Shown here piece by piece: positions 32,666 through 64,000 of a stretch of DNA of 64,000 bases (positions are counted from its first letter, which is position 1; every line of letters begins with the position of its first letter). The notes beneath the pieces are model-generated. The model was not told where the DNA came from. It made no database searches and worked only from the letters and a program-made list of their open reading frames with translations. The stretch lies in assembly GCA_020201525.1 (NCBI GenBank), contig JAIVGO010000094.1, positions 4,126-68,125 on the forward strand, given 5' to 3'. The stretch comes from Actinomycetota bacterium (GTDB lineage Bacteria > Actinomycetota > AC-67). A program made the translations under genes and the position numbers.

Positions 32666-35600
32666 ATGGCTCGTCATCGCTCACTTGTCGCGCTGCTCGC
32701 GGCCACACTCATCACAGGCCTGCTAGCCCTGATACCTGCCACGCCAACGGCGCTGGCCGCAGCCAACAAGACGACACCCCGCCTCGTCAGGCAGACCGAG
32801 ACCACGGACGTCTACGCCAATGCCGACGGGAGCCGGACAGCGGTCTTCTATGCCGGGCCGGCGAACTTCTTCGACAAGACCACGAACCAGTGGCGCAAGC
32901 TCGACAAGGAGTTCCGTCGAGTCGGCGACCACCTCGAGAACGGCGCCGGGCCGGTGCGGGTCCAGCTGCCCAGCGATACCTCTGCCGGCAAGGTCACCGT
33001 GGCCAAGGACGACTGGTCGGCGAGCTTCGCGCTCGAGGACGCGAAACCCAACCGGCCCGGCAACGTCACCAAGGGCCAGGTCCGCTACGACGACGTCGCT
33101 GCCGCCGCCGGGGTGAGCCTCGACTATCGGATGTTGAGCAACGGCTTGAAAGAGGACATCGTCCTCGACCAGTCCCTGCCCGCCGGGTCGCCGGACCACT
33201 TCCGCTTCCGCCTCTCCGTCGCCGGAGCCACCCCGGCTGCCGTCGATGGCGGTACGGCCATCGCGCTCCAGGATGGCGCCGGCCACGAACTCGCCCGGAT
33301 CCCCCGGGGCATGATGGTCGACGCCAAGGGAGCAAAGGGCGTCGTGGACATGCATCTCGTCGAGCAGGGCGCATCCTGGTTTGTCGACGTCGCCCCAGAC
33401 CCAGCCTTCCTTCGAGGTGACCGGGCCTATCCCGTGCGCATCGATCCCAGCATCATCTACACGGCGACGGCGCCGACCGACTCCTTCACGGACTCGGTCT
33501 GCACGACCTGCAACTACAACGGCATGGCCACCCTCAAGGCCGGCTGGGCCAACGGCATGCCGGGGACCACGGAGTACTACTCGTACATCCGCTTTCCTGA
33601 CCTCACCCCCATCGTCGGCAAATGGGTCGCCAACGCCCAACTCCGTCTCGAAGCGACCTACCAGGTCGATCCGTCGAGCTACGGCGTGACCGCCTTGCGG
33701 ACCCACCAGTCGTGGAACGCCTCGACCATCACGTGGTCGAACATGGCGAACCACGGGCCCGAGAGCTCCCACGCGGCCGCCGGGGGCTACCCGGACTACT
33801 ACTTTGACGTCACCAGCTGGGCCCAGGGCTGGGCCGGCGGGCAAGACGGCGAGTGGATCAACGGCAAGTGGAGCCCCTACGGCGCCACCATCAACACCGC
33901 CGGCGCCGCCGCCTACTACCAACTCGGCGCCGCCGAATCGACCTTCGTGCCCAACATCCCCTCGCTGTCGGTCACCTACACCAACCAGAGCCCGAACCTC
34001 CCGACCGCGTTGTCGCCGGCCGACGGATGGACGGGAACCTCAACGCCCCAGCTCAGCGCCACGCTCAGCGACCCCGACGACAGCAACGGCTGGATCGAGT
34101 TCGACCTCGACAGCGCCAACACCGCCATCGTCCCAACCGTCAACGGGATCGCCTCCTTCACCCCGACGCTCGGAGCCGGCACCCACTCGTGGAGGGCTCG
34201 CGGCAGAGACTTCGATAGCGCCGGCCCCTGGACGGCCTTGCGGTACTTCACCGTCAACACCGCCCCCGCTATGCCGGACCAGCTCAGCCCCGCCGATGGC
34301 TACTACAGCACGACCCTGCCTGCCTTGTCGGCTCGCTATGTGGACGTCGACAACAACAGTGGGTCGCTCGCGTTCGAAGTCGACGGCGTGGCCCATTCCG
34401 TGACCGGAATCGCCAACGGCGCAACCGGCTCCTGCACGACAGCCAACCTGTGCCTCCCGAGCAGCCTGGCCCCGGGTCTCCACTCCTGGCGCGTCCAAGC
34501 TGTCGACGGGCTCGGGCTTCCCTCCACCTGGTCGCCGTACCAGCAGTTCGAGTACCACTATGCCGGGCAGGTTGTGCGCGAGGAATTCCCCGTCAACGGC
34601 TCGCAGTGGGACACTACGAAATGGGCGATCTCGAGCGGCCTCACCGTCTCGAACAACCAAGGTGTCTTCCCGGCCAGCACTGCATCGAAGCGGGCGACCG
34701 CGACAGCCGCCTACTTGCAGGACTCCGAAGTTTCGTTCACCTACTCCATCCCGGACCGCACGGCGGGAACCGAACTGCGCACCACGCTGCGAGGATACGG
34801 CGCCACCGGATCGGCGCAACTCCCCAACGGTTATCGCCTCGACATCCCATCAGGTCTGAATCAAGATGGTTCGACCACCATCTCACTCAAGAAGCTCGTG
34901 AACGGAGTGGTCACGCCGCTCGGATCATCCTTCAACTACACCGGGTCAGGCTACGTCAATACTCGTGTGCGGTTCCGTGTGGATGGTTCGACAATCAGCG
35001 TCAAGGTATGGCCGGCTGGAACGCTAGAGCCAACAGCATGGTCGGCTCAAAGGACTGACAGCAGCATCACTGCGGCCGGGACGCTTCAGATCGCCCAGTC
35101 CTGGCAGACCGGAAGCGGCCGCGTGATCAACGTCGACAACGTTACCTACGAAAACCGGTCCTTCTGGGGCGTTGACTCCTCGAAACCGATCAATCAGGCG
35201 AGGCTCGATGTCCTGAACACGCAGTATGGGGGAAGGCCGAACGTCTGGGGCCGGTACCTCACGACGCAAAAGTTAGACCGCCAGACATATGAAACGACGT
35301 ATTGCCCCCGGTGCGGTCTGAACGAAGAGCCTCCGGGCGACGAGATCACCTTCGCACAAAACAACAAGATCGCGATCCAAGTCATCCAACGGGCCAACAA
35401 CGGTGACATCCTCCTCGGTGAGCAACTCGGGCGCGACTACGCAAATCTCGCCCAGGAGCATGCGCAACGGCTCGGGATCCCCACCAGCGTGGCGATCTTC
35501 ATGAACATCGAGGAATGTGCGAACTCGTGTCGGGTTGATGCCGGATTCATCTGGGGGTGGTTCGATCAACTCGACCGAGTGTACGGACGCAAGGTGGGCT

Positions 35601-40608: not shown

Positions 40609-42528
40609 GTTCGCGGTTGGGTAAGTGACACCAACCTCAATGGAGCGGCCACGACCGTCAAGGTCTATGTAGATGGATCCTCGACGCCGGCGGTCACCTT
40701 GACGGCCAACCTTTCTCGTGGCAATCCGTCAGTCAATAATGGCTTTGATTGGACGCCTCCATCAACGCTAAATCTCACGAACGGGACGCAGCATTCCTTC
40801 GTGGTAAAGGCGATAGATTACCCTTCGAATCCAAGTAACCCTGAGGTAGTGATCAGTAATCCGTTAACTACCTTTGTTCAGATGGATGATTCCTTCACAG
40901 GGAGCGACAATACCGACTGGTCAACTGTGAAATGGAATACGTCTGGTAACACGCTCGGCGGGACAGTGCGCGATGTTGATATCCTTTCTGGGCAAGGTCG
41001 GTTCTACGTCGCGAACGCGACTCAGGATGCCCAGGCGAAGCAGGCAACAGGTGAACCAGCCGTTCTCAACTCCGAGGCAGTAATGTCCTTGCGCTTCGCT
41101 GACCCGGGTGACTCAGCAAAAATGAAGGTCGCGCTCCGAGGAGCGAGCAACGTCTCCGGATCTTGGATGAGCGACGGCTACCAGCTGGAGATGCGTTCAT
41201 ACTCCAACCTCGTGAAGGTCTACCGAGTCGTCGGAACCGTCCGGACCGAGATCGGCGGGTTCACCTACACGTTCGGCACTGCCACGCACCGCCTGCGGTT
41301 CAAGGTCATCGGAACCAACCCGACGACCGTCTCGGTCAAGATGTGGCCGGCTGGAACAACGGAGCCGACGAGCTGGACGATACCTCCGATCGTTGACAGC
41401 ACCGCCCCAGTGACTGCGCCCGGCAAGCTCTTTGTCTCGCTAACCAATGGTGGCGGCACTCCCCGTACTGCGTATGTCGATGATCTTTCTCTGATACGGC
41501 TTAATAACACTATCGACGACGAGCCGAACAATCCGGCTGGCACTGCACCGCCGAACAGCATCTCTCGTTACGTCGACACGGCTGACCCTCAAAAGCTCCA
41601 CGACGCCGGTGCTGAAGATGCTGCCGCTGCCTTCCGGGTCATGACGGTCCTTGACTTCGGAGACCAAAATATCGACGGAGCACATTGGTACTCCCTCGGT
41701 TTGAGCGGCGACACGATTAAGAGCCTTGCCAAGCAATATATTGATGGCTTCTATAACGCCGCTGCGAGTGGGCAACAGGTAACCGTGGCCCTTGGGGTTT
41801 CGTGCAGCGGATACACCGGTAGCCGGGCAGACAAGAGGCAGAACGCCCGCGACAAGGGCGCAATTTGGGCCCAGCTCGTCAGCGATGTCTACACAACAGC
41901 TCGAGCCGATCACCCGAACACCCAAGTTCGAGTTGGCGGTGCGTATGACGTCGAATCTGAGGCAGGGTTCTGTGGTCCGCGCGTTTCCGGGAACCCGGGC
42001 GACGGCCCGAGCACTGCAGCGGCCTGGGTGGCTGGGTTCGACGAGAAGCAGACAAGCATCAGCATGAACGGAGGTTTGCCGCTCTTCTACGCGAACTTCG
42101 GTTCCGCCAACGGTTGCCCTCCCGCCGGCTCCTGTTCGGACGGCTGGACTCAGGAAGATTACTGGTCGCTCAGTACCGGTCCGAGGTCAGCGGTCGGATA
42201 CCCGGAAATCTATGGTACGAGCAACGATGAACAGTGGCAGCAGATTGGGATCTACGGTGTGGACCAGCACGGTGACAACCAGGACACGAGAATCGACTTC
42301 GTAGGTGCGATGACGCAACGCCAGGCGTGCCTGCAGGATCGACGCGACAACCCGGACCATGTCCCGGCAGACCAGATCCAGACGCATTACTGCAACGGGA
42401 CAGATCAGGACGCCCCGACTGGATGGAACGCCTTGAAGAACACGCTGGAGAGCAACCAGAAGACGGCCCAGCCAGTCGGATTCTCGACCGACATCATGTG
42501 GCTCGGCCGCGCGCCGCAGCTAGGCTGA
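40582..42528 (+). CDS. Ig-like plus LamG-like domain protein lacking a signal peptide and N-module. Likely a 5'-truncated member of the secreted-protein family.
   Basis: VSVKMWPAGTTEPTSWTIPP...GKLFVSLTNGGGTPRTAYVDDLSL (LamG-like motif shared with 32666 and 52817). Much lower GC (~50%) than neighbours. The first ~100 nt of the track ORF are antisense to the relaxase. Confidence 0.5.
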   Translation: MVEEASATHVRGWVSDTNLNGAATTVKVYVDGSSTPAVTLTANLSRGNPSVNNGFDWTPPSTLNLTNGTQHSFVVKAIDYPSNPSNPEVVISNPLTTFVQMDDSFTGSDNTDWSTVKWNTSGNTLGGTVRDVDILSGQGRFYVANATQDAQAKQATGEPAVLNSEAVMSLRFADPGDSAKMKVALRGASNVSGSWMSDGYQLEMRSYSNLVKVYRVVGTVRTEIGGFTYTFGTATHRLRFKVIGTNPTTVSVKMWPAGTTEPTSWTIPPIVDSTAPVTAPGKLFVSLTNGGGTPRTAYVDDLSLIRLNNTIDDEPNNPAGTAPPNSISRYVDTADPQKLHDAGAEDAAAAFRVMTVLDFGDQNIDGAHWYSLGLSGDTIKSLAKQYIDGFYNAAASGQQVTVALGVSCSGYTGSRADKRQNARDKGAIWAQLVSDVYTTARADHPNTQVRVGGAYDVESEAGFCGPRVSGNPGDGPSTAAAWVAGFDEKQTSISMNGGLPLFYANFGSANGCPPAGSCSDGWTQEDYWSLSTGPRSAVGYPEIYGTSNDEQWQQIGIYGVDQHGDNQDTRIDFVGAMTQRQACLQDRRDNPDHVPADQIQTHYCNGTDQDAPTGWNALKNTLESNQKTAQPVGFSTDIMWLGRAPQLG

Positions 42529-42551: not shown

Positions 42552-43358
42552 GTGAGGACCGTGCGGCAACGTCGCTGTCGATTAACCGCAGTGCTGTTCA
42601 CTTGCGTCGCTCTGGGATTAGCTGCCTGTCGAGATGGAAGCGAGCCCCCCGCTGCGCAACGAGCCGCCGCCAAGCCAACCACCTCATCGACGCTGCTGAA
42701 CGGAGAAGCTCAAGGAACTCCACCGGCCGGAAACCGACCGACTTCGAGCTCTGTAGCCCCCGGGCCGACGACTGTTGCAAGGGTGAGGCCGGGGGTCTCG
42801 TCGCCGACCTCGTCCACTACCACTCCCAGCCAACCCGACAGACCTCTCTATGCAGCGTGCGGTGAACGGAGTTTTTCCGATATCGCTCTTCTGCGGAATA
42901 CCCCGGTTGCGAATCGAGCGCCTTGGACCAAGGTTGCCCAAGTCCTCGTAGCGAACCACTACGGTCCAGACTGCTCATATGAGGGATCCCCGCAAGTAGT
43001 TCTCGCTCGAGACCTCGCGGTTGGGGGAGAATTACCGACGCAGACAAAACACGCAGATGATTTCGAAGAACGGTGGGTCAATCTTCGCTGGACGCACACC
43101 GAGACAGGGTATGAATATAAGGGTCGGACAGGTTATTTTCTTATATACACCACAGATCGAACGGACGACGGCGCACCTTGCCCATTAACTCGGATGATCA
43201 CTGGTGAGAAGCCTCATGTGAAGTTTCCTCCGACTGACGGGAGCGGAACCTTCAGCGGAAGTCCCGTATACGACGGGCCAGTCTTAGCGTCATGTGACGG
43301 CCGGATTTCAGTCACAGCATTAGCACAAGCACCGGACTCGGTCGTCGGAGACCGTTGA
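42552..43358 (+). CDS. Lipoprotein downstream of the LamG-domain protein. Candidate partner or inhibitor.
   Basis: gaaggaagg RBS, then GTG. VRTVRQRRCRLTAVLFTCVALGLAACRDG has a lipobox (LAAC). Low GC like the upstream gene. No recognised domain. Confidence 0.5.
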   Translation: MRTVRQRRCRLTAVLFTCVALGLAACRDGSEPPAAQRAAAKPTTSSTLLNGEAQGTPPAGNRPTSSSVAPGPTTVARVRPGVSSPTSSTTTPSQPDRPLYAACGERSFSDIALLRNTPVANRAPWTKVAQVLVANHYGPDCSYEGSPQVVLARDLAVGGELPTQTKHADDFEERWVNLRWTHTETGYEYKGRTGYFLIYTTDRTDDGAPCPLTRMITGEKPHVKFPPTDGSGTFSGSPVYDGPVLASCDGRISVTALAQAPDSVVGDR

Positions 43359-46143: not shown

Positions 46144-46785
46144 ATGTCAGACGAGCGTACGGCTTTGGTGCAGCAATCGTGGCGGAACATCATCGCTTGG
46201 TGCCGGGAGAACGCACCGGTGACCGCTGACACCCTGCGGGGGCCAGCGAGTGAGGAAGCTCTCGCAGCGGCACAGGCTGAGATGGGCTATGAATGGCCCG
46301 CAGAACTGTTGGCGTGGCTGCGTGTCGGCGACGGTGCTCTCCGGACACTTCAGGGCGACCTGATTCCACCAGGCTTCATCCCGATGGGTGTTGATCAGAT
46401 CATGGGCGACTGGCGACTGATGATCGAAGTCATCGGAGACATCGTGCAGCCTGAGGAGGTCAAATCAAGCGAAGGTGCGCCAGCGGGTACGTACTCAGCA
46501 GCTTGGTGCCGGTCCTTCATTCCCATTGGCGACTACACCACCGGTGATCTTCTGTTCATTGACCTCCGCTCAGGTCCCCAAAGCGGTTGCATTCGCGAAT
46601 GGGAGGACGGAGCGGCGCACCTCCGGAAACCCAATTGGGACAGCATCGCTTCGATGCTGGCGGATATCGACCAAGCTCTACGGGCGGGGCAGTGGGGAGA
46701 CGACGAGACTGGAAGGATTCCAACGGTGGAGAACGGGGCACTCAGGTGGAAATACTCCGAGGGCTGGGAAACGATCGACGGATAG
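46144..46785 (+). CDS. SUKH-1 / SMI1-KNR4 family protein (polymorphic-toxin immunity protein family), orphan.
   Basis: ...AWCRSFIPIGDYTTGDLLFIDLRSGPQSGCIREWEDG is the hallmark SMI1/KNR4 (SUKH) C-terminal motif. No adjacent toxin gene. Confidence 0.7.
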   Translation: MSDERTALVQQSWRNIIAWCRENAPVTADTLRGPASEEALAAAQAEMGYEWPAELLAWLRVGDGALRTLQGDLIPPGFIPMGVDQIMGDWRLMIEVIGDIVQPEEVKSSEGAPAGTYSAAWCRSFIPIGDYTTGDLLFIDLRSGPQSGCIREWEDGAAHLRKPNWDSIASMLADIDQALRAGQWGDDETGRIPTVENGALRWKYSEGWETIDG

Positions 46786-52816: not shown

Positions 52817-55800
52817 GTGCGTCGAGAGGAACGGGTTGGATTCGTGAGATTCTTTACGGCAGTCCGGAAGACGAAGCGGAGCCGTCGGGCTGGCGGCCTC
52901 CTTGCCGTGTCGTTGCTTGTCAGCGCGTTGCCGGCGGGCGCAGCCGACGATGGGACCACTCTGGCTGTCTCTGCCGCCTCGACCGCTCCTGCCGCAGCGG
53001 TCGGCGCCAAGCCCTTCATCGGCTTCGTGCCAGGGCAGAGCGTCGAGGACGTTTCGAAGCGAACGGCGCAGTCAAAGACCTTCCGGAACCCCGACGGGAC
53101 CTATACGGCTCAAATTTCGTCCGATGTCGTGCACTACTGGACCGGCACCGGATGGGCCGAGATCTCCAACCGGCTCGTGCCCGACGGGCCCGGCAGTTAC
53201 CGCAACGAGGCCAACTCCTTCACCGTTCGTTTCGGGGCAGCAGACGTCGTGCTGGACACGCCGCAAGGCGCAATGAACCTGGGGCCGTCCGGCGCGTCGT
53301 TGCGTGCTCCCGTGCTCGACCCAGTGGGCGAGACCGTCACGTACGCGGACGTATGGCCCGGAGTGGATGTCCGCTATCGAGTCGTCAGCACCGGCGTAAA
53401 AGAAGAAATCGTGGTCCGGCGGCGGCCAACGATCAGCCAATTTCCGTTCCGCCTCCAAGGCGCGGCGATGACCGTCCAGGCCGACGGCAGCGTGGCCATG
53501 GGCGGCGCCTTCGCCGGCACGTGGAGGATCCCCGCACCGCAGGTGTTCGCCAAGGACGGACAACTCATCAGCAAGACTGGCGCCCGCTTCACCGTGACCG
53601 GAAACACCATCACCCTGAATGTCGACCGCAGCTGGCTTGCCGGTCTGGACGAGACGAAAGATCTGCCCGTCGTTCTCGATCCGCCAATCCTCTCCGTCGG
53701 GTCGACGACCGGCCGTTCCTACGAACGCCTCTCTTCGGACACCGACTACGGCACGTGCGACAGCATCCCCACGCCCTGCCAGGTAATGGTCGGCATCCGC
53801 AACACCACGAACGGCTGGCACCCCTGGCGGTCGGTGCAGTACTTCCCCTACGAGTCGCTGTACGGCAAGCAAATCCTCAAAGGACAGGTCATCCTGCAAG
53901 CTCGCCAGGAAGGCACGCCCGACCCGAAGGTCATGAAGATCTACGGCGACGACGTCAACGGCCAGTTCGGCGGCGTCTGGAACTGGGTGAACCTCGGCGG
54001 CTTCATCGCCTCCGGTACGGCGCAGGACGACACGTTCATCTACGACGAAGCCGAGAGCGGACCGCACCCGCTGGCCGACTACTACCAGGATCTCGTCAAC
54101 CGCAACCTGCCCGGCATGGCGATCAAGTTCCTCGGGGACGAAACCCCGGGCAACTCAACGTTCAAGCGATTCGCCTGGTTCCAGCTCCAACTCACGTACA
54201 ACACGCCGCCGAATGTCCCCGACACACTGAGCCAGACCTGGTCGTCTGGGTTCACCGCGCCGGAACTCTCCGCCCGGTTCACCGACCCCGACGGCGACAA
54301 CGGCAACGTCGACTTCGAAGTCACCCGCCCGGACGGCTCGAAACTCCTCGTGCCGGTCGGGACGACCAACGGAGGGACCGCCCGGACCACGCCCGCTGTG
54401 AGCGCCGCCGGCACATACTCCTGGCACGTCCGAGCCTGGGATGGAAGGACCCTGTCCCGCAATCCCGAATGGTCGAGCGATCAGACCTTCACGGTCATTA
54501 CCGACGTCGCCCCGAACGTTCCAGACAACCTTGCCCCTGACAACAACGCGGCCAGTGCGTCAGCCCCCACGCTCTCCGCCCGGTACACCGCCAACGATGG
54601 GCAAGGCGGATGGATCGAGTTCGACCTCGGCAGTGAAGACCAGGTCATTTTAGTGCCCGCTGCGCACAACCAGACCGTGAGCTTCACTCCAGACACGCTC
54701 ATGGAGGGGAACTATTCCTGGCGGGTTCGAGCCACTGACGGAACCTACGAATCTGCTTGGACGCCATGGCGCTACTTCAACGTGAGAAAAAACCTTGTTT
54801 GGTACGAGAACTTCACCGGTAACAATGGCGATCTTTGGAACAGCTCCCGCTGGAGCACCGGGACGAATAGTCTCACGAGGACAGTCGATATTCAAAGTAA
54901 CGAAGGGCGGCTCTACGTTAACGGCTCCTCGGCAGGGGCGACCGCTCGACAGGCCGGCTCGAACATCAACCTTGCGGATATCGACGTCGCGTTGACGTTC
55001 CGGTTCGAAAACACCAACACTCGAAGCTTCCTGCGGCTCAGGGCACGAGACTCAGGCACGAACGCCTATCGTGTCGAACTCCGCAACGACTCCACCACCG
55101 TCAAGTTGCAAAACATTCTCAACGGCGTATCCGGCGCGATCACACAGTTCACGTACAACCCCGATGGCCAAGCCGGCTTCGATCCTGGAAGCCATCGCCT
55201 GCGTGTTCAGCTCACGGGCAGCACCGTCCGAGTGAAAGCGTGGCCGGCGAACAGCGCCGAACCAGACACCTGGCAGATCGATCGGACCGATACGTCCGTC
55301 ACCGGCCCAGGCGTCCTGAAGATCGACCACAATTACGACACCGGATCACGCAGCATCTACCTCGATGACGTGGCGGTCGCGAATCTCCAGGTCCAAGGGG
55401 GAACTCAGCCAGAGCTCAAGATGTGGGATGAGTATCCCAACCACGGGTACGCCGACATGGCCAGAGTGACGGACGGCGGAACCCTCCTTGGGTTCACCTC
55501 CGACCGATGCAAGGCGGTTGAAAACGACCTCATCGCCCAAGTCAAAGCGACCACGGAAGGAAGCCAACCGGAATTCCGGGGTGCCTGGCCGAGCGGACTA
55601 ATCCTGCACCGAGGCTCCGACTGCATCGGCCGGGTCGGCGACGGCGTCCATATCACGCTCGACTACATGACCGACAGCGAATGGACCCAGTCGGGTCCGG
55701 GGCATGGAAAGAACGGTGGCCATGTCCACTCCTTCCTAGCCGCCCCAGAATGGTGCGATGTTCACGGATACACCAAGATCAACGGAAGATGCGGCTTGGA

Positions 55801-56029
55801 ATTCAGCCGGGTCCACCTCAAGGAATCGAAGTTCGACACCGTGTACCCGAATGACACCGTCAGGCGGAACGTTCTCATCCACGAGACCGGCCATGCTTTC
55901 GGCTTCAAGGACGACTGCTCCACGAAGGCGATCACCAATGACGGATCGTGCGGTCTCCCTCAAGGCTGGACATCCATCGACAGGCGAGAGATGCGGGATC
56001 ACATCTACACCAACTTCCCGTACCCGTGA
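52817..56029 (+). CDS. Secreted multidomain protein, 1070 aa. Order: shared N-terminal module, DNRLRE-like domain, two FN3-like domains, LamG-like domain, C-terminal snapalysin/M7-like metzincin (HExxHxxGxxD).
   Basis: Signal peptide. N-module homologous to the RHS N-termini. VRVKAWPANSAEPDTWQIDRTD LamG-like motif. C-terminal VLIHETGHAFGFKDDCS. The C-terminal third is lower in GC. Confidence 0.8.
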   Translation: MRREERVGFVRFFTAVRKTKRSRRAGGLLAVSLLVSALPAGAADDGTTLAVSAASTAPAAAVGAKPFIGFVPGQSVEDVSKRTAQSKTFRNPDGTYTAQISSDVVHYWTGTGWAEISNRLVPDGPGSYRNEANSFTVRFGAADVVLDTPQGAMNLGPSGASLRAPVLDPVGETVTYADVWPGVDVRYRVVSTGVKEEIVVRRRPTISQFPFRLQGAAMTVQADGSVAMGGAFAGTWRIPAPQVFAKDGQLISKTGARFTVTGNTITLNVDRSWLAGLDETKDLPVVLDPPILSVGSTTGRSYERLSSDTDYGTCDSIPTPCQVMVGIRNTTNGWHPWRSVQYFPYESLYGKQILKGQVILQARQEGTPDPKVMKIYGDDVNGQFGGVWNWVNLGGFIASGTAQDDTFIYDEAESGPHPLADYYQDLVNRNLPGMAIKFLGDETPGNSTFKRFAWFQLQLTYNTPPNVPDTLSQTWSSGFTAPELSARFTDPDGDNGNVDFEVTRPDGSKLLVPVGTTNGGTARTTPAVSAAGTYSWHVRAWDGRTLSRNPEWSSDQTFTVITDVAPNVPDNLAPDNNAASASAPTLSARYTANDGQGGWIEFDLGSEDQVILVPAAHNQTVSFTPDTLMEGNYSWRVRATDGTYESAWTPWRYFNVRKNLVWYENFTGNNGDLWNSSRWSTGTNSLTRTVDIQSNEGRLYVNGSSAGATARQAGSNINLADIDVALTFRFENTNTRSFLRLRARDSGTNAYRVELRNDSTTVKLQNILNGVSGAITQFTYNPDGQAGFDPGSHRLRVQLTGSTVRVKAWPANSAEPDTWQIDRTDTSVTGPGVLKIDHNYDTGSRSIYLDDVAVANLQVQGGTQPELKMWDEYPNHGYADMARVTDGGTLLGFTSDRCKAVENDLIAQVKATTEGSQPEFRGAWPSGLILHRGSDCIGRVGDGVHITLDYMTDSEWTQSGPGHGKNGGHVHSFLAAPEWCDVHGYTKINGRCGLEFSRVHLKESKFDTVYPNDTVRRNVLIHETGHAFGFKDDCSTKAITNDGSCGLPQGWTSIDRREMRDHIYTNFPYP

Positions 56030-56095
56030 TAGTGGCCGGCCTTCTAGCGGAATTCAAACGAACCGAAGCAGAAGCCGATTCGGAGGTAACCGGTA

Positions 56096-56554
56096 ATGAA
56101 AGCCCGCAATAGGATGCGCTGGGCAAGTGCTCGCTTCTTCATTCCCGTGCTCGCCATTCTCGCGGGTCTGGTTGGGATGGCGTCGCTCGCCAGCGCCGGC
56201 CCTGACAAGGCGCCCTCCAAGGGGCGGCCGATGCTGGGTTGCTCAAAGCTCGTTCCCGGGGCGGGATCGCAAGAGAGCCAGGACCTCTTCGACCCCGAGA
56301 GCGGGCAGCTGGTGGTATCGACGCCTAGCGCCGACTACCTTCTGTCCGAGAATGACCCTGAGTGCAAAGCGAATCCCGAAGCCCGAGGTCGGCTCGCTGA
56401 GGCCCGGTCCATGGCGAACGAGAACCACAGGGCCATGTGCGAGGACTTCAACCGCTATGTGGCAGAAGGCACCACCGAAGTGAACGGCCGCCCCATCAAT
56501 CTTGACGCTGCTCGGCAAGCTCTCCAGGGAGGATGTGTCGGTTGGCTTCGCTGA
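56096..56554 (+). CDS. Small secreted Cys-containing protein immediately downstream of the metzincin-domain gene. Candidate inhibitor or immunity protein.
   Basis: GGAGG, then ATG. MKARNRMRWASARFFIPVLAILAGLVGMASLASA signal peptide. 4 Cys. Lower GC. Confidence 0.55.
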   Translation: MKARNRMRWASARFFIPVLAILAGLVGMASLASAGPDKAPSKGRPMLGCSKLVPGAGSQESQDLFDPESGQLVVSTPSADYLLSENDPECKANPEARGRLAEARSMANENHRAMCEDFNRYVAEGTTEVNGRPINLDAARQALQGGCVGWLR

Positions 56555-57561
56555 CACGTCGACTGCGACGACCTTTGGTCGCAGCAGCATGTCTCACGCT
56601 GGCTCTCACCGCCTGTCGTTCGTCGAGTTCGCCGCCCAGCGCCTCGCGGGGAGAGGAAGCAGCGTCCACAACCTCCAGCGGGCGGGACGAAGCGCCGGGG
56701 GTTCCCGATCGTAAATCGTACGGACCCTTTATTCGCTTAGCGTCCATGGGGGCTACGGCCTGGGATGGCCACCGAGTCTGGATTACCGACTCTGACCATG
56801 GCCGGCTCCTGGCTGTCGATGGCGACTCCGGCAAAGCGGTCGTCGATAGTCACGTCGATTGGTTCTCCGAGCCTGGCAGCATGGCAGTCGCCGATCGCGA
56901 ACTGTGGGCCATCGCCCAGGATGCGGATGGGGCAAACGTACGCGTCCTCCGAATCAACAGTGCCGATGGCCACATCAAGAGCAGCCGGATCGACGGAGGA
57001 CGACCACTCGGGCAAGCCCTCCGTAAGGACAACAGCCTCCTTGTCGCCGATTACGAGCGGGCCATTGTCTCGATCGATCACGACACCGGCACGCGGCACG
57101 TCAAAGTGCCGCTTGACGTCATCCCGAACCTCCTTCAAGCCGCACCCAACGACACTTACTGGGTCGTAGACGACAACCGCACACGGGTAGTCCGGGTTGA
57201 CGCTGGAGGCAAACGTCTGGTCGACTCAACGCAGTCTCGCTACGTGGCTGGAATCGTCACTGATGCCGCGGGTAACGCCTGGTTAGCTCAACGTTCGGCC
57301 GTGGCCGTCTTGAACCTCGCCGGTGCGACAATCCGCGAATTCGACGGGTTCAAGAACGTCGTGGCTGTCCTATGGTGCGAAGGAGCAGCTGTGGCTTCGG
57401 ACATCGAAACCGGGGAGCTCGCGTGGCTTGATGGCTCCGGACGTGACCAGCGCGTCCAGACAGGGACCTCCGGGCGTGCCATCGCATGCGCGCCAGATGG
57501 GATCTGGTTCGTATCCGCCGACGGATACCTCTCACGGATCACGAAGCCGTCCAACCCCTGA
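56533..57561 (+). CDS. Lipoprotein with a predicted beta-propeller-like fold.
   Basis: RRPLVAAACLTLALTACRSSSS has a lipobox. Repetitive DG/DxxG segments. Overlaps the upstream gene by about 20 nt. Confidence 0.5.
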   Translation: MCRLASLTRRLRRPLVAAACLTLALTACRSSSSPPSASRGEEAASTTSSGRDEAPGVPDRKSYGPFIRLASMGATAWDGHRVWITDSDHGRLLAVDGDSGKAVVDSHVDWFSEPGSMAVADRELWAIAQDADGANVRVLRINSADGHIKSSRIDGGRPLGQALRKDNSLLVADYERAIVSIDHDTGTRHVKVPLDVIPNLLQAAPNDTYWVVDDNRTRVVRVDAGGKRLVDSTQSRYVAGIVTDAAGNAWLAQRSAVAVLNLAGATIREFDGFKNVVAVLWCEGAAVASDIETGELAWLDGSGRDQRVQTGTSGRAIACAPDGIWFVSADGYLSRITKPSNP

Positions 57562-57602
57562 AGTCGTCTACCACCAGCCGTCGGTAGTTAACTCACACGC
57601 TT

Positions 57603-57633
57603 TGACGCGCGATAAGCTTCCCTTATCGCGCGT
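57603..57633 (+). terminator. Perfect 13-bp stem / 5-nt loop hairpin (rho-independent terminator-like; no U-tract).
   Basis: gacgcgcgataag-cttcc-cttatcgcgcgtc lies 42 nt after the stop at 57561 and before the integrase reading frame. Confidence 0.5.
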
Positions 57634-57831
57634 CAGAAACAGAGGTCAGAACCGCCGGCCGAGGAGCCGGGAGCGGTCGAGCTCCAGGCCGTCGACGATC
57701 TCGCCCTCGAGGCGCTCACCGCCCGAGCGGCGGAGTATGTCGACGCCGGCCGAGCCCCCAACACCAAGAAGGCCTACCGCACGGACTGGGCCGAATTCAC
57801 CGCCTGGGCCGGCCAACGCGGCCTGGCCGTC

Positions 57832-58626
57832 ATGCCTGCGGAACCGGCCACGGTTGCCATCTATCTGACTGACCTCACCGAGGTCGCCAAGACGTCGACG
57901 GTCGAGCGACGCCTGGCATCGATCGCCTTCGCTCATCGAACCGCCAACCTTGCGTCGCCGACCGACGACCCGATTGTCAAAGCGGTCTGGGCCGGGATTC
58001 GCCGTGTCCATGGCACTGCCGAAGCCCAAGCCGCCCCCATCACGGTTGGGTTGTTGCGCCGCATGATCGCCAACCTCCCGTCGGGACCCGGCGGAACCCG
58101 AGACGCCGCCCTCTTGCTCGTCGGATTCGCCGGCGCGCTGCGCCGCTCGGAGCTCGTCGCCCTCGACGTGGCCGACCTCGAGGACCGCCACGAAGGACTG
58201 GTCCTTACCCTGCGCCGCTCCAAAACCGATCAGGAGGCTGCTGGCCGTCAAGTCGGCCTTCCCTACGGCTCCAACTCCGCCACCTGTCCCGTCCGCAATC
58301 TCACCGCCTGGCTCGACGTCGCCGGCATCATCGACGGGCCCGTGTTTCGGCCCGTCGACCGCCACGGCCGCATCGCCACCACTCGCTTGTCCGCCGCGGG
58401 CGCGAACCGCATCGTCCAACGAGCCGTCGGCCGCACCGGCACCGACCCCCGCTCCTACTCCGCCCACTCGCTTCGGGCCGGGCTGGCCACCGCCGCCGCC
58501 GAAGCGGGGATCTCTGAACGGGCCATCATGAGCCAGACCGGACACCGGTCCCTCGTCGTCGCCCGCGGCTACATCCGCAGCGGTTCACTGTTTCGCGACA
58601 ACGCCGCTGCTCAGGTCGGTCTGTAA
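57832..58626 (+). CDS. Tyrosine recombinase (phage-integrase family). Integrase-like sequence continues about 200 nt upstream of the first ATG without a canonical start codon.
   Basis: Catalytic-domain motifs ...LLVGFAGALRRSEL..., HSLRAGLATAAAEAG, GHRSLVVARGYIR. In-frame upstream AVELQAVDDLALEALTARAAEYVDAGRAPNTKKAYRTDWAEFTAWAGQRG looks like the N-terminal core-binding (SAM-like) domain. Confidence 0.8.
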   Translation: MPAEPATVAIYLTDLTEVAKTSTVERRLASIAFAHRTANLASPTDDPIVKAVWAGIRRVHGTAEAQAAPITVGLLRRMIANLPSGPGGTRDAALLLVGFAGALRRSELVALDVADLEDRHEGLVLTLRRSKTDQEAAGRQVGLPYGSNSATCPVRNLTAWLDVAGIIDGPVFRPVDRHGRIATTRLSAAGANRIVQRAVGRTGTDPRSYSAHSLRAGLATAAAEAGISERAIMSQTGHRSLVVARGYIRSGSLFRDNAAAQVGL

Positions 58627-58826
58627 ACGCTGAGGTAATTTCGTCCGGGCATTCGGCTTCCAGCTTCTGGACCATTAACCGGGCGAGCCGACCGGCCCGG
58701 CTTCATGGCATTTCGGGCAGCGGGCACGCAACCGCCGCAAGGGTTCGACGAGTCCTCTCCAGCGCGTCGCAGCAGCGGCCGATCCTGCCTTTCGGCTTAG
58801 CTCCCGCACGAAGGGCCTGTTCGCTG

Positions 58827-61800
58827 ATGCGCGTTTCGCTGAAGATCTCCGTCGACTCAAGCGCTCGCCGCCCATGGCATCGGGGGCTGGTCAGCACCCT
58901 GGTGGTCCTCGTCAGCCTCGCTGCTACCAGCTTGGTCGCCGTGCCCCTGACCGCGGAAGCGGCCGACCGAGGCGACGCGCACAAGCAGATGAGCCCCCAA
59001 GAGCTCCCCGCCCTCCATTCGGACGCCCCCACTCCCAGAGCGTTGGACATCCCGCAAGGCGACTTCAGCAATCCTCCCGCCCAACACGCCGACGACGTCA
59101 GCACCGACCGCAGCGGCGTCAAGGCCGGAGCAACACTGGTCGGCCGGTCCGCGGGCAGCGAAATCTGGGACAATCACGATGGAACCTCGACCGCGGTCGT
59201 ACATGCGCGACCCTCCACGTGGGCTGATCGCGACGGCAAGCACAAAGTGATGGATAGCCGCCTGACTCGTCAGGGTGCACGCCTGAAGAACACCGGCGGA
59301 CCGGTCGGCTTCGACCTGCCAGCCGCAACAACAGCGAACGAAGTAGTAGTCGCCTCAGCCGACGGCTGGTCCTTGGGTTTTGCCATGGACGGCCTCGCCG
59401 CTGGACGAAATGGCGAAGTCGACGGAGCTTCCGTTCGCTACCGCGCGGTTCAGCCTGGCGTCGACCTCGTCGAGACCATCGAAGGCGACACCCTCAAAGA
59501 GACGGTCGTTCTAACTGAACTGCCTCGGCCCGGTAGTACCAACCGATTCCGCTTCCCGCTCACCATGAGCGGGCTGACCCCGAAAGAACAGGCGGACGGT
59601 TCGATCCGCTTCTACGACCGGGCCGGCACCGAGGTCGCCGCCATGCCGGTCGGCGTAGCGTTCGACGGTAGCGGCGATGCTGCCCGCGGTACGCAGGCCC
59701 AGACTCCGGTCCATCTCGACCTCATAAGAGTGGCGGGCCAGTGGACTGTGGAGCTTTCGGTTGACCGCACCTGGCTGTTGGATCCGAGCCGTGTCGCTCC
59801 GATCTCGATCGACCCGTCGGCGACCTTCAATGCTGGCCGCGACAACGGCTCGACTCACTCGGACGCCTTCGTCTCGCAGGCCGCCCCGACCACGAACTAC
59901 AACACGCTGCTCGACTCCGGCTCCTACGTCGACAAGGTCGGCTACGGTTCCTACCCCACCGACCAGTTCAACACCTTCTTGAAGTACGACGTCTCCGCAT
60001 TGGCCGGCAAGACCGTCAGCGCCGCCACCTGGAACGGCTACTTCCTCTCCGCCGCCGCCTACCCCAGCACCTACGCCCTCACCCAAGCGGCAGCGTCGTG
60101 GACCGACTCCACCTTGACCTGGAACAACCAGCCCGGCGCCACGGGCTCGGCTGCCACGGGCTCCGTCACTGCCGCGAATCAATGGGCGACAAAGGACATC
60201 ACCGGCTGGGTGCAGGGCTGGCTGGCCACGCCCACTTCGAACAACGGCATCAGGCTTGACAGCAATGGCACCAACGCCTACCTGCGCCTAGCCGCTATGG
60301 AGCAGGCGGCGCAGGACTCGTATATAGCGGTCACCTTCGCGAATACGGAGCCGTCCGCACCGACCGCTGTACAGCTGACACCGGCCGACCAATCGACCGT
60401 CATGTCGCTCACACCGACGCTCACATCGGCGGCGATGACCGATGCCGAGGGCGACGCCGTCCAGTATTGGTTCCGAATCGCCACGGGCACCGACGGGCAG
60501 ACCGGACAGTTGATCAACTCGGGTTGGCTCACCACCCCGTCGTACCAGGTTCCGATCGGTGCCTTCCAGGACGGCATGACGTACCACTGGGAGGTCTACA
60601 CGCGAGACGCCTGGGCCACCGGTCCTCCCACCACCGTCTCCCCCACGGTGTCCCTGACGGTGGACCAGGGGCTAGGGCGAGGCGCCAGCGACAACGTCGG
60701 ACCGGTCTCTATAAACCTAACCAACGGCAACGCCACGGTCAGTGTCGCGTCACCGAGCTTCCAGACGCTCGGGGGATCAATCGGGCTCAGCTACACCTAT
60801 AACTCGCAGACGCCAGTTCCCAGCGGCCTCTCCGGCTCGTACTACCCCTGCACCGCAGCCGCAGGTACCGGCTCGGCCGGTCCGACGTTCCCGGCCACGG
60901 GCACGCCTCCGGCCCTCGTCCGACCGGACACCACTCTGAACTTTGCGTGGAACGCCACGTCTCCTTTGCCGGCACCGGGACCGAACGCCGACCCGACGAA
61001 CTTCTGTGTCCGGTGGAGCGGATATGTCACCGTGCCTACGACGTCGACGGCGTGGTCGTTGAGCGACACCCATGACGGCGGAGCTCGCATCTACCTGAAC
61101 AACAACTTCACGACGCCTTACGTCGATGCGTGGTCGAATTCGTCCGGGACGGTGACCGCCAGCGGTGCAGCCGTCGCGCTCACCGCCGGCGTGCCCACAC
61201 CGATCACCATCGACTACTACCAGAGCGACACCGCCGCCAACTTCTCGTTGTCCGTAGCCGGTCCGATCACCGGCATCGTCCCGTCCAGCTGGCTCACGCC
61301 GAGCTCATCGTCTGTCGTGCCCAGCGGCTGGTCGGTCTCGACCGGCGGAAGCCGCACCCTGGCCTACACCGCCGCCAAGGTTGGCAACGACTCGTTCGTG
61401 CTCACCGACCCAGCGGGGGGTGCGCACGAGTACCGCAAGGTAAACAGGGCCTGGAAGCCCACCAAAACTGAGCAGGCCGTCGTCACGCAGAACTCCGACG
61501 GCACGTTCACGGTGCTCGCGCCCGACGGCCTGAACTACTTCTTCAGCACTGCCGGCAAGCTCAGCTCGGTCATGTCAGCCAGCGATGACAGCAACAGAGC
61601 GGCACCGACCTACTCCTTCGACCCTACGAGTGGCAACGTCACCGCCCTGACCGACCCGCTCAGCGGCCGCGCCCTTAGCCTGACCTACGCCACCACCCCC
61701 AACCCGTGTGCCACCCCGCCCAGCGGGTTCGACAGTTCCCCGCCGGCAGGCATGCTCTGCAAAGTCTCCTATCCCGACGGATCGGTCACGAATCTTTTCT

Positions 61801-64000
61801 ACATGGCTGGGCAGCTCGGCCGCATCGTCGATCCGGGATCTTCCTCGATCGGGTATCCGACGACGGACTTCGCCTACGACTCGAGCGGTCGGCTCACCAA
61901 GGTCCGCGACCCCCTCGGATACGACAAGGTTCAGACGAGTCCTGGCACGCTCGACAACGATACGACCCGCACGGTGATCGCCTACGACACCGGCGGGCGG
62001 GTGACCACACTCACCGCACCGGTCCCGAACGCTGGAAGCACCCCCGCCTTGCCCGCCCCGCAGCGCACTTACTCCTACCCCACCGCGGGCGAAACCCAGG
62101 TCAACGTCATCGGGTTGACCCCGTCGAGCGGCTTTTTCCGCAAGGTGACCTTCGACCCTGGAACGGGAGTTCTCCTCTCGGACACGGACGCGACGAACCG
62201 CACAACCAGCTACGAGTACGACACTGACGAGCGACTCGTCATCACGACGGACCCAGGTGGGCTCAAGACAACCACGGTCTACAACGCCCAGGGACAGGTG
62301 AGCGACACCTACGGTCCCGCACCGGCCACCTGCTTTACCGGCCAGACACCTAACGGCGCCTGCACCAACCCGGCCGTGCCGCATGCCACCAGCGCTTACG
62401 ACGAAGGAATCAAGGGGCTCGCCGCCGTCTACTGGAACAACCAGACCCAGACCGGCCCGGCGATCATGCACGCCACTGGGGTGGGGGACTCCACCGGCGC
62501 GCTCAACAAGGACTGGGTCGGCGGGACGCCATTCGACTCGAACTGGACATCCGCCTGGTCCGGGCGATTCACCGGCGACATCACCTTTCCGCAGGTCGGT
62601 ACGTACAGCATCGCTCTCGACAGCGACGACGGCGTCCGGCTCTACCTGGACGACTCCAGCTCGGCGCTGATCGACTACTGGCGCGACCACCGAGGCTTCT
62701 CCCCCAGCGCCACCTTCACCAACACCGTCGCCGGGTCACGCCACCGCATTGACATTGAGTACTACGACAACACGCAGGGCGCCAAGATTGGGCTGTACTG
62801 GACTCCGCCCGGCGGCACCCAAGCTCTGGTCCCCGGCGATTATCTTTCCCCGAGTTATGGGCTCGTCACCTCAACCACCGACGCCGACGGCAAAAAGACG
62901 GCGACTGAGTACAGCAACGGCAGCATCGGCCCCGAGTACGGGCTGGCGACTGCCACCGTTCAGGACCCCGCCGGACTGAACCTACGGACAAGCACGTCCT
63001 ACGAGGCGCCCGGTGCAACGGGAAGCTACCTGCGCCCCTTGACGAAGACGCTTGCGAAGAGCTCGGCACACAAGACGACCAACAGCTATTACGGCGCCAC
63101 CGAGGCCGCCCCGACGAACAACTGCGGCATTGGTTCATCGACCGTGCAGGCGGGGATGCTGAAGCAGACCGCCGATGCCGACGGCGTCACCAAGCAGTTC
63201 CTCTATGACGGCTCGGGCCGGTTGGCTGGAGCCAAATACAGTGGTGACGCCAACTGGTCGTGCACCGGCTATGACGCTCGGGGCCGGGTGACTTCGGCGG
63301 CGGATCGCAACCTCGCCTCGGCCGCTACCGACTACAGCACCGTGGGGCAAATCACCACCACTTACACCGACTCGTCGGGGATTGTCCGCTCCACCCTGGC
63401 CAAGGCCGACCTGCTAGGGCGGTCCATCTCCTACACCGACGAGCTGGGCACGAACACCCGGAGCTTGTACGACCAGGCCGGGCGGGTCACCGCGATGTAC
63501 CGGACGTTTGCCGGCGCCAGCGAAGGTCAGTTGAACGGTACGGTCTACGACGACGCCGGCCGGCCGACCAGCGTCACCGACTACACGTCTGGCACCGGAC
63601 TAACGACGATTTTCGCTTATGACACCGCAGGGCGGTCGCAGACGCTGACTCGGCCCAATGGAGTCGTCACCACGGCCACCTACGATCCCAACCAGGGCCG
63701 CCTCACCGGCCTGTCCAACAAGGCCGCGGGCACGACGGAACTCTCGCCCTGGACGTACACCCTGAGCGCTGCAGGACGCATTGCCTCCGAAACGACAACG
63801 GGTCGGAGCCGCTCGTTCACGTACGACGGTGCCGGTCGCCTCGTAACTACCAGTGAAAACAGCGGGACGACCATCCGCAACTACGCCTACGACGCGAACA
63901 CCAACCGCTGCGCGAACACCACCAGCTGCACGACCCCGACGTTCACGTACGACAACGCCGACCGAATCACCGCCTCGCCTTACGCCAGCGCCTACGGCTA
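58827..64000 (+). CDS. Secreted RHS/YD-repeat protein (RHS3), 5' portion. Order: shared N-terminal module, DNRLRE-like domain, FN3-like domains, two PA14-like domains, YD repeats. Continues beyond the window.
   Basis: ATG at 58827, MRVSLKISVDSSARRPWHRGLVSTLVVLVSLAATSLVAVPLTAEAAD signal peptide. N-module homologous to the RHS1/RHS2 N-termini. PA14-like segments (HDGGARIYLNNNF...ITIDYYQS; DSDDGVRLYLDD...IDIEYYDN). YD repeats to the last base (FTYDNADRITASPYASAYG). Not in the ORF track because it lacks an in-window stop. Confidence 0.8.
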   Translation, partial: MRVSLKISVDSSARRPWHRGLVSTLVVLVSLAATSLVAVPLTAEAADRGDAHKQMSPQELPALHSDAPTPRALDIPQGDFSNPPAQHADDVSTDRSGVKAGATLVGRSAGSEIWDNHDGTSTAVVHARPSTWADRDGKHKVMDSRLTRQGARLKNTGGPVGFDLPAATTANEVVVASADGWSLGFAMDGLAAGRNGEVDGASVRYRAVQPGVDLVETIEGDTLKETVVLTELPRPGSTNRFRFPLTMSGLTPKEQADGSIRFYDRAGTEVAAMPVGVAFDGSGDAARGTQAQTPVHLDLIRVAGQWTVELSVDRTWLLDPSRVAPISIDPSATFNAGRDNGSTHSDAFVSQAAPTTNYNTLLDSGSYVDKVGYGSYPTDQFNTFLKYDVSALAGKTVSAATWNGYFLSAAAYPSTYALTQAAASWTDSTLTWNNQPGATGSAATGSVTAANQWATKDITGWVQGWLATPTSNNGIRLDSNGTNAYLRLAAMEQAAQDSYIAVTFANTEPSAPTAVQLTPADQSTVMSLTPTLTSAAMTDAEGDAVQYWFRIATGTDGQTGQLINSGWLTTPSYQVPIGAFQDGMTYHWEVYTRDAWATGPPTTVSPTVSLTVDQGLGRGASDNVGPVSINLTNGNATVSVASPSFQTLGGSIGLSYTYNSQTPVPSGLSGSYYPCTAAAGTGSAGPTFPATGTPPALVRPDTTLNFAWNATSPLPAPGPNADPTNFCVRWSGYVTVPTTSTAWSLSDTHDGGARIYLNNNFTTPYVDAWSNSSGTVTASGAAVALTAGVPTPITIDYYQSDTAANFSLSVAGPITGIVPSSWLTPSSSSVVPSGWSVSTGGSRTLAYTAAKVGNDSFVLTDPAGGAHEYRKVNRAWKPTKTEQAVVTQNSDGTFTVLAPDGLNYFFSTAGKLSSVMSASDDSNRAAPTYSFDPTSGNVTALTDPLSGRALSLTYATTPNPCATPPSGFDSSPPAGMLCKVSYPDGSVTNLFYMAGQLGRIVDPGSSSIGYPTTDFAYDSSGRLTKVRDPLGYDKVQTSPGTLDNDTTRTVIAYDTGGRVTTLTAPVPNAGSTPALPAPQRTYSYPTAGETQVNVIGLTPSSGFFRKVTFDPGTGVLLSDTDATNRTTSYEYDTDERLVITTDPGGLKTTTVYNAQGQVSDTYGPAPATCFTGQTPNGACTNPAVPHATSAYDEGIKGLAAVYWNNQTQTGPAIMHATGVGDSTGALNKDWVGGTPFDSNWTSAWSGRFTGDITFPQVGTYSIALDSDDGVRLYLDDSSSALIDYWRDHRGFSPSATFTNTVAGSRHRIDIEYYDNTQGAKIGLYWTPPGGTQALVPGDYLSPSYGLVTSTTDADGKKTATEYSNGSIGPEYGLATATVQDPAGLNLRTSTSYEAPGATGSYLRPLTKTLAKSSAHKTTNSYYGATEAAPTNNCGIGSSTVQAGMLKQTADADGVTKQFLYDGSGRLAGAKYSGDANWSCTGYDARGRVTSAADRNLASAATDYSTVGQITTTYTDSSGIVRSTLAKADLLGRSISYTDELGTNTRSLYDQAGRVTAMYRTFAGASEGQLNGTVYDDAGRPTSVTDYTSGTGLTTIFAYDTAGRSQTLTRPNGVVTTATYDPNQGRLTGLSNKAAGTTELSPWTYTLSAAGRIASETTTGRSRSFTYDGAGRLVTTSENSGTTIRNYAYDANTNRCANTTSCTTPTFTYDNADRITASPYASAYG

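Follow-up and report, generated by a model that had tools for sequence, protein, structure and literature searches.

A conserved three-gene cassette encoding a putative metzincin-like peptidase domain, a small secreted four-cysteine protein and a probable propeller lipoprotein in uncultured Actinomycetota

We examined 64,000 nucleotides (nt) of the assembly GCA_020201525.1 from an Actinomycetota bacterium of lineage AC-67 (contig JAIVGO010000094.1, forward strand, positions 4,126 to 68,125), with a G+C content of approximately 66%; this whole stretch is referred to below as the window. Towards its end, three consecutive genes encode a large secreted protein ending in a putative zinc-peptidase domain, a small secreted protein with four cysteines and a lipoprotein that is probably a beta-propeller, and a hairpin follows the third gene. 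An earlier interpretation made from the letters of this DNA, hereafter the sequence-only reading, had singled out the trio as a candidate effector-inhibitor set. We found that the cassette is a conserved extracytoplasmic three-gene unit of a rare, uncultured Actinomycetota lineage.

Three genes and a hairpin

The features of the cassette are as follows.

52817..56029, forward strand: gene for a large multidomain secreted protein with a C-terminal zinc-peptidase domain, 1070 codons counted from GTG 52817
52844..52942, forward strand: predicted Sec signal peptide of the large protein, of the classic type, read from the sequence (MRFFTAVRKTKRSRRAGGLLAVSLLVSALPAGA, with ADD after the cleavage site)
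53330..53626, forward strand: DUF7948 domain in the large protein (Pfam PF25778, 29.2 bits against a cut-off of 27)
54185..55390, forward strand: two immunoglobulin-like (Ig-like) repeats and a beta-sandwich module of ~195 amino acids (aa), delimited by in-window tblastn, with a weak Pfam Big_13 match
55412..56026, forward strand: putative metzincin-like zinc endopeptidase domain, ~205 aa with six Cys, assigned by whole-length homology to stand-alone enzymes
55880..55912, forward strand: zinc-binding/catalytic motif HETGHAFGFKD (HExxHxxGxxD), aa 1022-1032, read from the sequence
56096..56554, forward strand: small secreted protein of 152 aa, candidate partner or inhibitor of the peptidase, with a signal peptide at residues 1-34 and a mature part of ~118 aa
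56533..57561, forward strand: lipoprotein of 342 aa, probable seven-bladed NHL-type beta-propeller, with lipobox LTAC and Cys28
57601..57637, no strand assigned: hairpin marking the end of the three-gene unit, its 16-bp stem perfectly paired, supported by folding against shuffled sequences

The three open reading frames (ORFs) and the hairpin lie where the sequence-only reading had placed them, except that the small ORF begins 66 nt, rather than the claimed 67, past the stop of the large ORF; a GGAGG stands 8 nt upstream of it. The true start of the large gene is likely GTG 52844, 12 nt past a GAGGAA (52826-52831), which gives a product of 1061 aa. This start is preferred because a typical Sec signal peptide follows it and the GAGGAA lies upstream. 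The C-terminal end of the product reads ...NVLIHETGHAFGFKDDCSTKAITNDGSCG...FPYP before the stop codon, and the peptidase tip comprises its last ~205 residues, beginning ELKMWDEYPNHGY.

The motif in the tip is of the metzincin form HExxHxxGxx[H/D]. For the second hallmark of the metzincin clan (MEROPS MA(M)), the Met-turn methionine, the family qualifies when taken together but the window member lacks it: the column that holds Met in distant homologues is here occupied by Thr, within AITND (55928-55942). Most family members are stand-alone secreted proteins of ~200-285 aa (P0011, P0012, P0013 and forms at the loci designated L011-L014), and these align with the window tip from the residue after the signal peptide onwards (alignments A3 and A4). 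Since the alignment starts directly at the signal-peptide cleavage site, the stand-alone enzymes leave no space for a conventional propeptide, which makes other means of latency plausible.

In the ten peptidase homologues that were aligned, the H, E and H of HExxH are invariant and the G of HExxHxxG is nearly so; several Cys are invariant as well, as are a C-terminal D and Y. The third zinc ligand is Asp in eight of the ten and His in two. The His forms occur in L012 (359-1066; HETGHSHGLAHH) and L014 (319-1041; HETGHGNGLSHH), which share the motif HETGHxxGLxHHCxxxS[VI]M, so that S[VI]M places a Met 8 residues beyond the His. The window clade, L011 and L013 combine an Asp third ligand with Thr, Ser or Ala in the Met column. 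Thus, the third ligand and the Met-turn residue covary within one family, His with Met and Asp with Thr, Ser or Ala (alignment A4).

The sequence-only reading had called the tip snapalysin-like. This holds for the HExxHxxGxxD motif only: four family members gave no match to the Peptidase_M7 profile at E <= 10, a search in which the HMMER filters remove most matches above E ~0.1, and identity with family M7 (snapalysin) was ruled out on that ground. In Pfam, Reprolysin_5 matched below threshold (23.8 bits against a cut-off of 27, E 6e-5), around the HExxH helix. Matches to M12, M10, M54, M66 and Zincin_1 likewise all fell under their cut-offs and were confined to the zinc helix, and the N-terminal ~150 residues of the family matched nothing. 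The tip matched neither Tox-MPTase nor any other toxin family of Pfam, and a peptidase profile run against the chain sequences of the PDB found nothing. We read the domain, from its motifs and homologues, as representing an undescribed metzincin-like family, in which the Asp/Thr clade is likely to be catalytically competent.

The small protein (public locus tag LC750_09245) has a signal peptide ending in ASLASA, before GP, and exactly four cysteines, at positions 49, 90, 115 and 147, which bears out its earlier description as a 152-aa secreted four-cysteine protein. All 21 family members compared share the four Cys and Gly131; Asp66 and Ala138 vary hardly at all, and a G-R-x-V-N loop is well conserved. 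An AlphaFold 2 (AF2) model predicts three short strands, a long helix (residues 94-124) and one further helix. The known inhibitor families I38 (Inh/AprI), I36 (SMPI), I16 (SSI/sermetstatin), potempins and TIMP showed no sequence or fold similarity to it; as judged by sequence and model, the small protein is outside every known inhibitor family. Five other proteins (P0022, P0023, P0026, P0029 and P0034) contain only the N-terminal half of the small protein and are themselves lipoproteins, and P0030 seems to carry this half twice in tandem.

The lipoprotein ORF overlaps the small ORF, as the sequence-only reading would have it; the overlap is 22 nt, and the lipobox Cys is Cys28. The lipobox LALTAC (RRLRRPLVAAACLTLALTAC, followed by RSSS) conforms to the pattern [LVI][ASTVI][GAS]C, from which lipidation is predicted. 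The full length of 342 aa and the lipobox Cys are kept in eight homologues. The NCBI annotation gives only a 226-aa product (P0005), from which the signal peptide, the lipobox and the first blades are left out. Pfam matches to Vgb_lyase (22 bits against a cut-off of 50) and NHL (15.5 against 20) were below threshold. Since these are joined by a PDB sequence match to the designed NHL-type protein Pizza6 (E 1.3e-5 over ~70 residues) and by approximately seven repeats of ~40 residues seen by eye, the third protein likely adopts a beta-propeller fold. Its motifs GRPLGQ, ADY and WVVDDxR are very strongly conserved, and one homologue was named 'lactonase YvrE' by its source. All three products of the cassette carry Sec or lipoprotein signals together with conserved Cys pairs.

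The hairpin behind the trio is as strong as had been claimed: its 89-nt region has a folding energy of -32.6 kcal/mol (z = -4.1), matched by none of 200 shuffled sequences. A canonical intrinsic terminator was considered and rejected, as the T-tract is absent and the terminator scan does not list the hairpin. Actinobacterial terminators often lack U-tails, and the hairpin may still terminate transcription.

Gene order in related loci

Of 11 related loci whose downstream sequence is readable, 10 have an intact small gene directly after the peptidase domain. These ten are the window, L001, L006, L007, L008, L009, L011, L012, L013 and L014, and their peptidase domains range from 82% down to approximately 25% identity to that of the window. 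The junction between the two genes is a 4-nt overlap in L006, L008 and L009, a 1-nt overlap in L007, and at the other end of the range there are gaps of 26-66 nt. The propeller lipoprotein gene follows the small gene in the window, L002, L003/L004, L006, L007 and L008, and the two overlap in the window and L002. In L011 and L013 the third position is taken by divergent lipoproteins of similar size, and the gene concerned overlaps the small gene in L013. The tightest gene pair is peptidase-small, the next small-propeller. This conserved tight coupling argues that the trio is a functional set and not a group of unrelated neighbours.

The exception among the eleven is L005, which encodes an intact giant peptidase and an intact propeller protein, with only a 3' remnant of the small gene, of ~41 codons (4113-4229), between them. 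Either the candidate inhibitor has been lost naturally from this locus or the assembly is at fault there. An integrase fragment precedes these genes in L005, and in L007 a transposase-like ORF lies downstream.

Small and propeller genes also occur together without the peptidase gene. In L003 and L004 a gene for a MarR-family regulator takes its place, 9 nt upstream of the pair (L003 3799-5815; L004 311-1814). L002 has a gene on the opposite strand 22 nt upstream of its pair, and no peptidase gene was found within the 128 nt of upstream sequence available there. L004 and the full trio of L006 come from the same sequencing run, SRR28401823.

The families are very rare. A full HMMER scan of 1.84 billion representatives with the small-protein profile returned only 27 clusters at E <= 0.001, 96-206 aa long and none within a larger multidomain protein. 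A word-indexed search of 5.8 billion proteins gave three matches each for the small protein and the peptidase domain and seven for the propeller. The genome scan added one contig of a metagenome-assembled genome (L008), and the metagenome scan with a four-sequence peptidase alignment found only L009; the same scan with a small-protein alignment found nothing. Every small-family member for which the context was read sits in the cassette. Together with the count of ~27 clusters, this rules out the circumstance that the sequence-only reading had itself named as fatal to its proposal, namely that the small gene encodes an unrelated envelope protein conserved elsewhere.

A mosaic scaffold in mobile surroundings

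The ~850-aa scaffold to which the peptidase domain is attached carries this domain in the window and at one other locus, L005. Its parts recur within the window. The DUF7948 region is common to the N-termini of a giant RHS-repeat protein (20985-28919) and of a third giant starting near 58820, with in-window tblastn matches at 21318-22028 and 59076-59816. By the same method, the block of two Ig-like repeats and the sandwich module was found in a 1107-aa protein (33965-35170), which bears CBM96 and an Rv2525c-like glycoside-hydrolase-like domain, and the sandwich module alone in a 675-aa protein (40888-41505). The name 'LamG' given to this beta-sandwich was not upheld: Pfam lends it no support, a paralogue has one weak 3keto-disac_hyd match and a PDB profile search was empty.

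The giant has a full-length homologue in L005, with 48% identity over 1156 columns (L005 781-4107 against window 52844-56026). Identity is uneven along its length, approximately 28% up to aa 450, 60-92% from there to aa 850 and 46-74% within the peptidase tip; the Ig-Ig-sandwich block is thus 60-92% identical and its flanks 28-56%. Such unevenness points to module recombination, and the alignment suggests that the middle block may have undergone recent recombination or gene conversion.

A tyrosine recombinase gene (57832-58626, forward strand; Phage_integrase, E 2e-14) follows directly after the hairpin, overlapped by an ORF on the reverse strand (57646-58545) that looks spurious, being rich in Gly, Arg and Ala. 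The cassette may lie at a mobile-element junction. Beyond it, the third giant ORF is open over 58602-64000 on the forward strand. It probably starts near 58820 and codes for a signal peptide and, in all, no fewer than 1,700 aa; its N-terminus is DUF7948-like (59076-59816), and the ORF runs past the end of the window. The window further holds two RHS-repeat giants (676-8187 and 20985-28919; 2503 and 2644 aa), a TrwC relaxase/helicase gene (37645-40608, reverse strand), a SUKH-1 (SMI1/KNR4) immunity-type gene (46144-46785) and a subtilase gene. The region looks like a mobile, conflict-related one. The neighbourhood of RHS, SUKH-1, relaxase and recombinase genes supports a role in inter-bacterial conflict without proving it (PMC3482391). 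From the RHS giants, SUKH-1, the relaxase and the integrase, the label 'effector' for the peptidase gene is plausible.

The sequence-only reading had also pointed to two further places in the window where a secreted enzyme is followed by a small lipoprotein.

18720-17254, reverse strand: streptogrisin-like S1 protease with a long N-terminal pro-region (PDB matches at E 2e-4 to 1e-3)
17252-16827, reverse strand: 141-aa lipoprotein with a lipobox, 1 nt after the S1 protease stop, with a weak Ig-like Big_14 match
40501/40582-42528, forward strand: protein of 649-675 aa (start 40501 or 40582), sharing only the sandwich module with the main gene
42552-43358, forward strand: 268-aa lipoprotein with a lipobox, 23 nt after the 675-aa protein

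These ORFs and both lipoboxes exist, but the supposed LamG protein has no visible signal peptide and its LamG domain was not confirmed by Pfam. Its C-terminal ~340 aa and the 268-aa lipoprotein gave no matches. At its 5' end, the 675-aa ORF either adjoins or overlaps the beginning of the TrwC relaxase gene, which runs divergently (40501-40608); given this position and the absence of a signal peptide, the gene may be a 5'-truncated copy of one for a larger secreted protein. No paralogy was found between the partners of these two pairs and the main trio, and a tblastn search of a plasmid collection matched neither the peptidase domain nor the 141-aa lipoprotein. The recurring pattern of enzyme and lipoprotein is an observation on gene layout only, and the inhibitor idea for the S1 and 'LamG' pairs is conjecture.

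Function of the cassette and comparison with known systems

Our preferred reading, held tentatively and at a little under an even chance, is that the small protein is a latency or self-protection inhibitor that binds the peptidase, with the propeller aiding it at the cell surface; its basis is gene context. Gene 1 would encode a Sec-exported, metzincin-like zinc endopeptidase with three disulfides, which in most relatives would be a stand-alone enzyme whose mature chain runs from the cleavage site, with no propeptide. In the window, a mosaic scaffold (DUF7948, two Ig-like repeats and a beta-sandwich) would have acquired the domain at its C-terminus; parts of this scaffold recur in the RHS giants and other giant secreted proteins nearby. 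Gene 2 would supply a secreted protein of ~118 aa with two disulfides, tightly or translationally coupled to gene 1, that would bind the peptidase domain 1:1 and keep it inactive near the producer. The product of gene 3 would be a beta-propeller attached to the exterior of the membrane through a lipid. It accompanies the small protein also where the peptidase is missing, and would work with it at the surface as a docking platform or a second shield. We adopt this reading because the gene order is strict and often overlapping, the products share a compartment, the enzymes lack a propeptide, peptidase-less pairs exist and inhibitor operons provide precedent. The conflict and mobile context of the window (RHS giants, SUKH-1, TrwC relaxase and tyrosine recombinase) was also counted in its favour.

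Several observations weigh against an inhibitor. Small-protein profiles built from 6 and from 21 members had no relevant match among all PDB chain sequences at E <= 10, the small protein had no match in Pfam, and Foldseek comparison of its model with the PDB gave none at E <= 0.001 (best TM-score 0.27). The model itself, built from three sequences, is of medium confidence, with a predicted local distance difference test (pLDDT) score of 69 overall and 80-93 for residues 60-140. That of the peptidase domain, from a four-sequence alignment, was unusable (mean pLDDT 31); with the fold unmodelled, activity is deduced from the motifs, and in the window clade the Met-turn methionine is replaced. Charge complementarity between the two proteins was not observed, since the peptidase domain has a calculated isoelectric point of 6.0 and the mature small protein one of 5.0. 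If the L005 copy is neither decaying nor misassembled, its remnant speaks against an immunity function that the cell cannot do without. The third gene of L014 (1630-2532) is unrelated, encoding a 300-aa secreted protein with a YYCGPGSG motif for which a Pfam search gave no match. On the 159-kb contig of L013, Tat, helicase and lipid-metabolism genes surround the trio, which resembles a housekeeping setting more than a conflict one. The peptidase-less pairs complicate an inhibitor role, yet they fit orphan protective genes.

A sharper version of the same reading, which we consider unlikely, is that of an interbacterial toxin with its immunity proteins: the tip would attack cell-wall peptides or surface proteins in the envelope of a competitor, immunity would come from the small protein together with the propeller lipoprotein, and the peptidase-less pairs would be orphan immunity genes. 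It would account for a tip that occurs both in stand-alone cassettes and fused to a modular scaffold, for scaffold modules common to RHS giants and to two proteins with other C-terminal regions, and for the mosaic relation of the giant orthologues of the window and L005 (28%, 60-92% and 46-74%). RHS, SUKH-1, relaxase and integrase genes in the window, the integrase fragment in L005 and the transposase-like ORF in L007 agree with it as well. Zincin tips are known in polymorphic toxins, as are surface-acting toxins with secreted immunity proteins (PMC3482391), and a partial beta-propeller, Tsi1, is a known immunity protein (PMC3391265). However, the tip matches no Tox-MPTase or other toxin family in Pfam, most members are plain stand-alone secreted enzymes, one of them in the housekeeping neighbourhood of L013, and L005 lacks an intact small gene. 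Moreover, no dedicated delivery system is visible beyond Sec, and no target is assigned.

The small protein could alternatively be a helper in folding or secretion, a separate chaperone resembling a pro-domain that assists folding and formation of the three disulfides and inhibits transiently as a by-product. Stand-alone enzymes without a propeptide, two disulfide-rich proteins, and a gene order with start/stop overlaps that suggest stoichiometric co-synthesis would all suit such a helper. We regard it as improbable, since small and propeller genes occur without an adjacent peptidase (L002, L003/L004), L005 retains the peptidase without the small gene, and the small protein is also tightly linked to the propeller.

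Of similarly low probability is a housekeeping module of the envelope for surface processing or sensing, in which the small protein, the propeller or both would be substrates, regulators or a receptor of the peptidase, with neither conflict nor inhibition at play, and the fusion to the giant would be secondary. The chromosomal setting of L013 and the MarR regulator coupled to the small and propeller genes in L003 are consistent with this, and the propeller motifs GRPLGQ, ADY and WVVDDxR could form a ligand or catalytic site. On the other side, 27 clusters among 1.84 billion representatives is an unusual rarity for a housekeeping system, several loci adjoin mobile-element genes, and the third gene is replaceable, as in L014.

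More specific than our preferred reading of the small protein as an inhibitor, and decidedly speculative, is the idea that it forms with the propeller a two-component surface trap, in which a new inhibitor fold would dock on the lipid-anchored propeller, for propeptide-less metzincin antibacterial effectors that are secreted alone or joined to polymorphic giants, the peptidase-less pairs then serving as orphan immunity at the level of the community. Chance adjacency of three unrelated genes has next to no probability and is excluded in practice by a gene order kept over about ten divergent loci, down to approximately 25% protein identity, and by small-family contexts that, wherever read, lie in the cassette.

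Protein inhibitors co-transcribed with bacterial peptidases count as rare, and every additional family, such as the potempins, has brought a new inhibition mechanism to light. Here both partners come from families without a curated profile or a solved relative, and a conserved lipoprotein joins them as third member. Should the small protein be an inhibitor, it would provide a new scaffold for metzincin inhibition. The peptidase family offers a natural case in which a change of the third zinc ligand from His to Asp goes together with replacement of the Met-turn methionine, and the fusion onto a recombining giant beside RHS toxins illustrates how a stand-alone enzyme may become part of polymorphic surface or toxin proteins. 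If the two-component trap were true, it would add a new protease-inhibitor family, the first full beta-propeller lipoprotein acting as an immunity factor and a Sec-dependent metzincin toxin system in monoderms.

The inhibitor reading has its closest precedent in serralysin, whose gene stands beside that of the secreted inhibitor Inh/AprI (MEROPS I38), which could neutralise the peptidase near the producer. Serralysin inhibitors, staphostatins and potempins are examples of secreted inhibitors that are co-transcribed with bacterial peptidases (PMC9890683). The operons of serralysin with Inh/AprI, staphopain with staphostatin and streptopain with Spi place, as here, a secreted peptidase beside a small exported protein in a tight operon (PMC9890683). 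In contrast to serralysin and Inh, the small protein described here has no similarity to solved inhibitors, the peptidase belongs to a different family, a third gene encodes a propeller lipoprotein, and the host is a monoderm with no periplasm to protect.

The KLIKK peptidases and potempins of Tannerella forsythia are similar in that several secreted peptidases each have an inhibitor of ~100-130 residues with start/stop overlap, and orphan inhibitor-like ORFs also occur there (PMC9890683). This layout is the pattern that the sequence-only reading had proposed for the whole window. Potempins are lipoproteins of 98-132 residues with Ki values of 2-10 nM (PMC9890683). Their genes lie upstream of the peptidase gene, whereas the partner gene here lies downstream. 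Potempins are also beta-barrel lipoproteins, whereas the small protein is predicted to be alpha/beta and not lipidated, with a separate 342-aa propeller lipoprotein beside it, and there is no homology.

Snapalysin (M7) resembles the tip in its HExxHxxGxxD motif (PMC3890501) and in a short C-terminal subdomain with a disulfide-bridged loop past the third ligand, and is likewise actinobacterial and exported by Sec. The domain described here is larger, ~205 aa against ~130 aa, and its stand-alone members lack a propeptide. Snapalysins retain a Met approximately ten residues past the third ligand (PMC3890501), where the window clade has Thr, Ser or Ala. The archaemetzincin (M54) signature is HEXXHXXGXXHCX4CXM (PMC3427221), and L012 and L014 match its spacing of 8 residues from His to Met. 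Likeness to M54, M10 (matrixin) and M12 (reprolysin) otherwise consists of weak Pfam matches below cut-off in the region of the zinc-binding helix only.

Polymorphic toxins with zincin tips (Tox-MPTase1-5, HopH1-like) share with the cassette a modular giant, an enzymatic tip that also occurs alone, a small downstream gene and an island with RHS and SUKH genes (PMC3482391). They differ in that none of the Tox-MPTase families matches the tip here, export is a feature of the candidate immunity proteins, and no releasing peptidase or pre-toxin domain was seen. The survey of these toxins reported no beta-propellers among the immunity proteins and only a single immunity family that was a lipoprotein (PMC3482391). 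In the Tse1/Tsi1 pair, an exported, partial beta-propeller blocks a hydrolase acting on the envelope, a type VI amidase (PMC3391265). Tsi1 is a small fragmented propeller that acts alone, whereas the present system has a full-size propeller lipoprotein and a second small protein, with no homology to it. Altogether, the cassette is like known peptidase-inhibitor operons in its layout and not in its proteins, which belong to very rare, undescribed families of uncultured actinobacteria.

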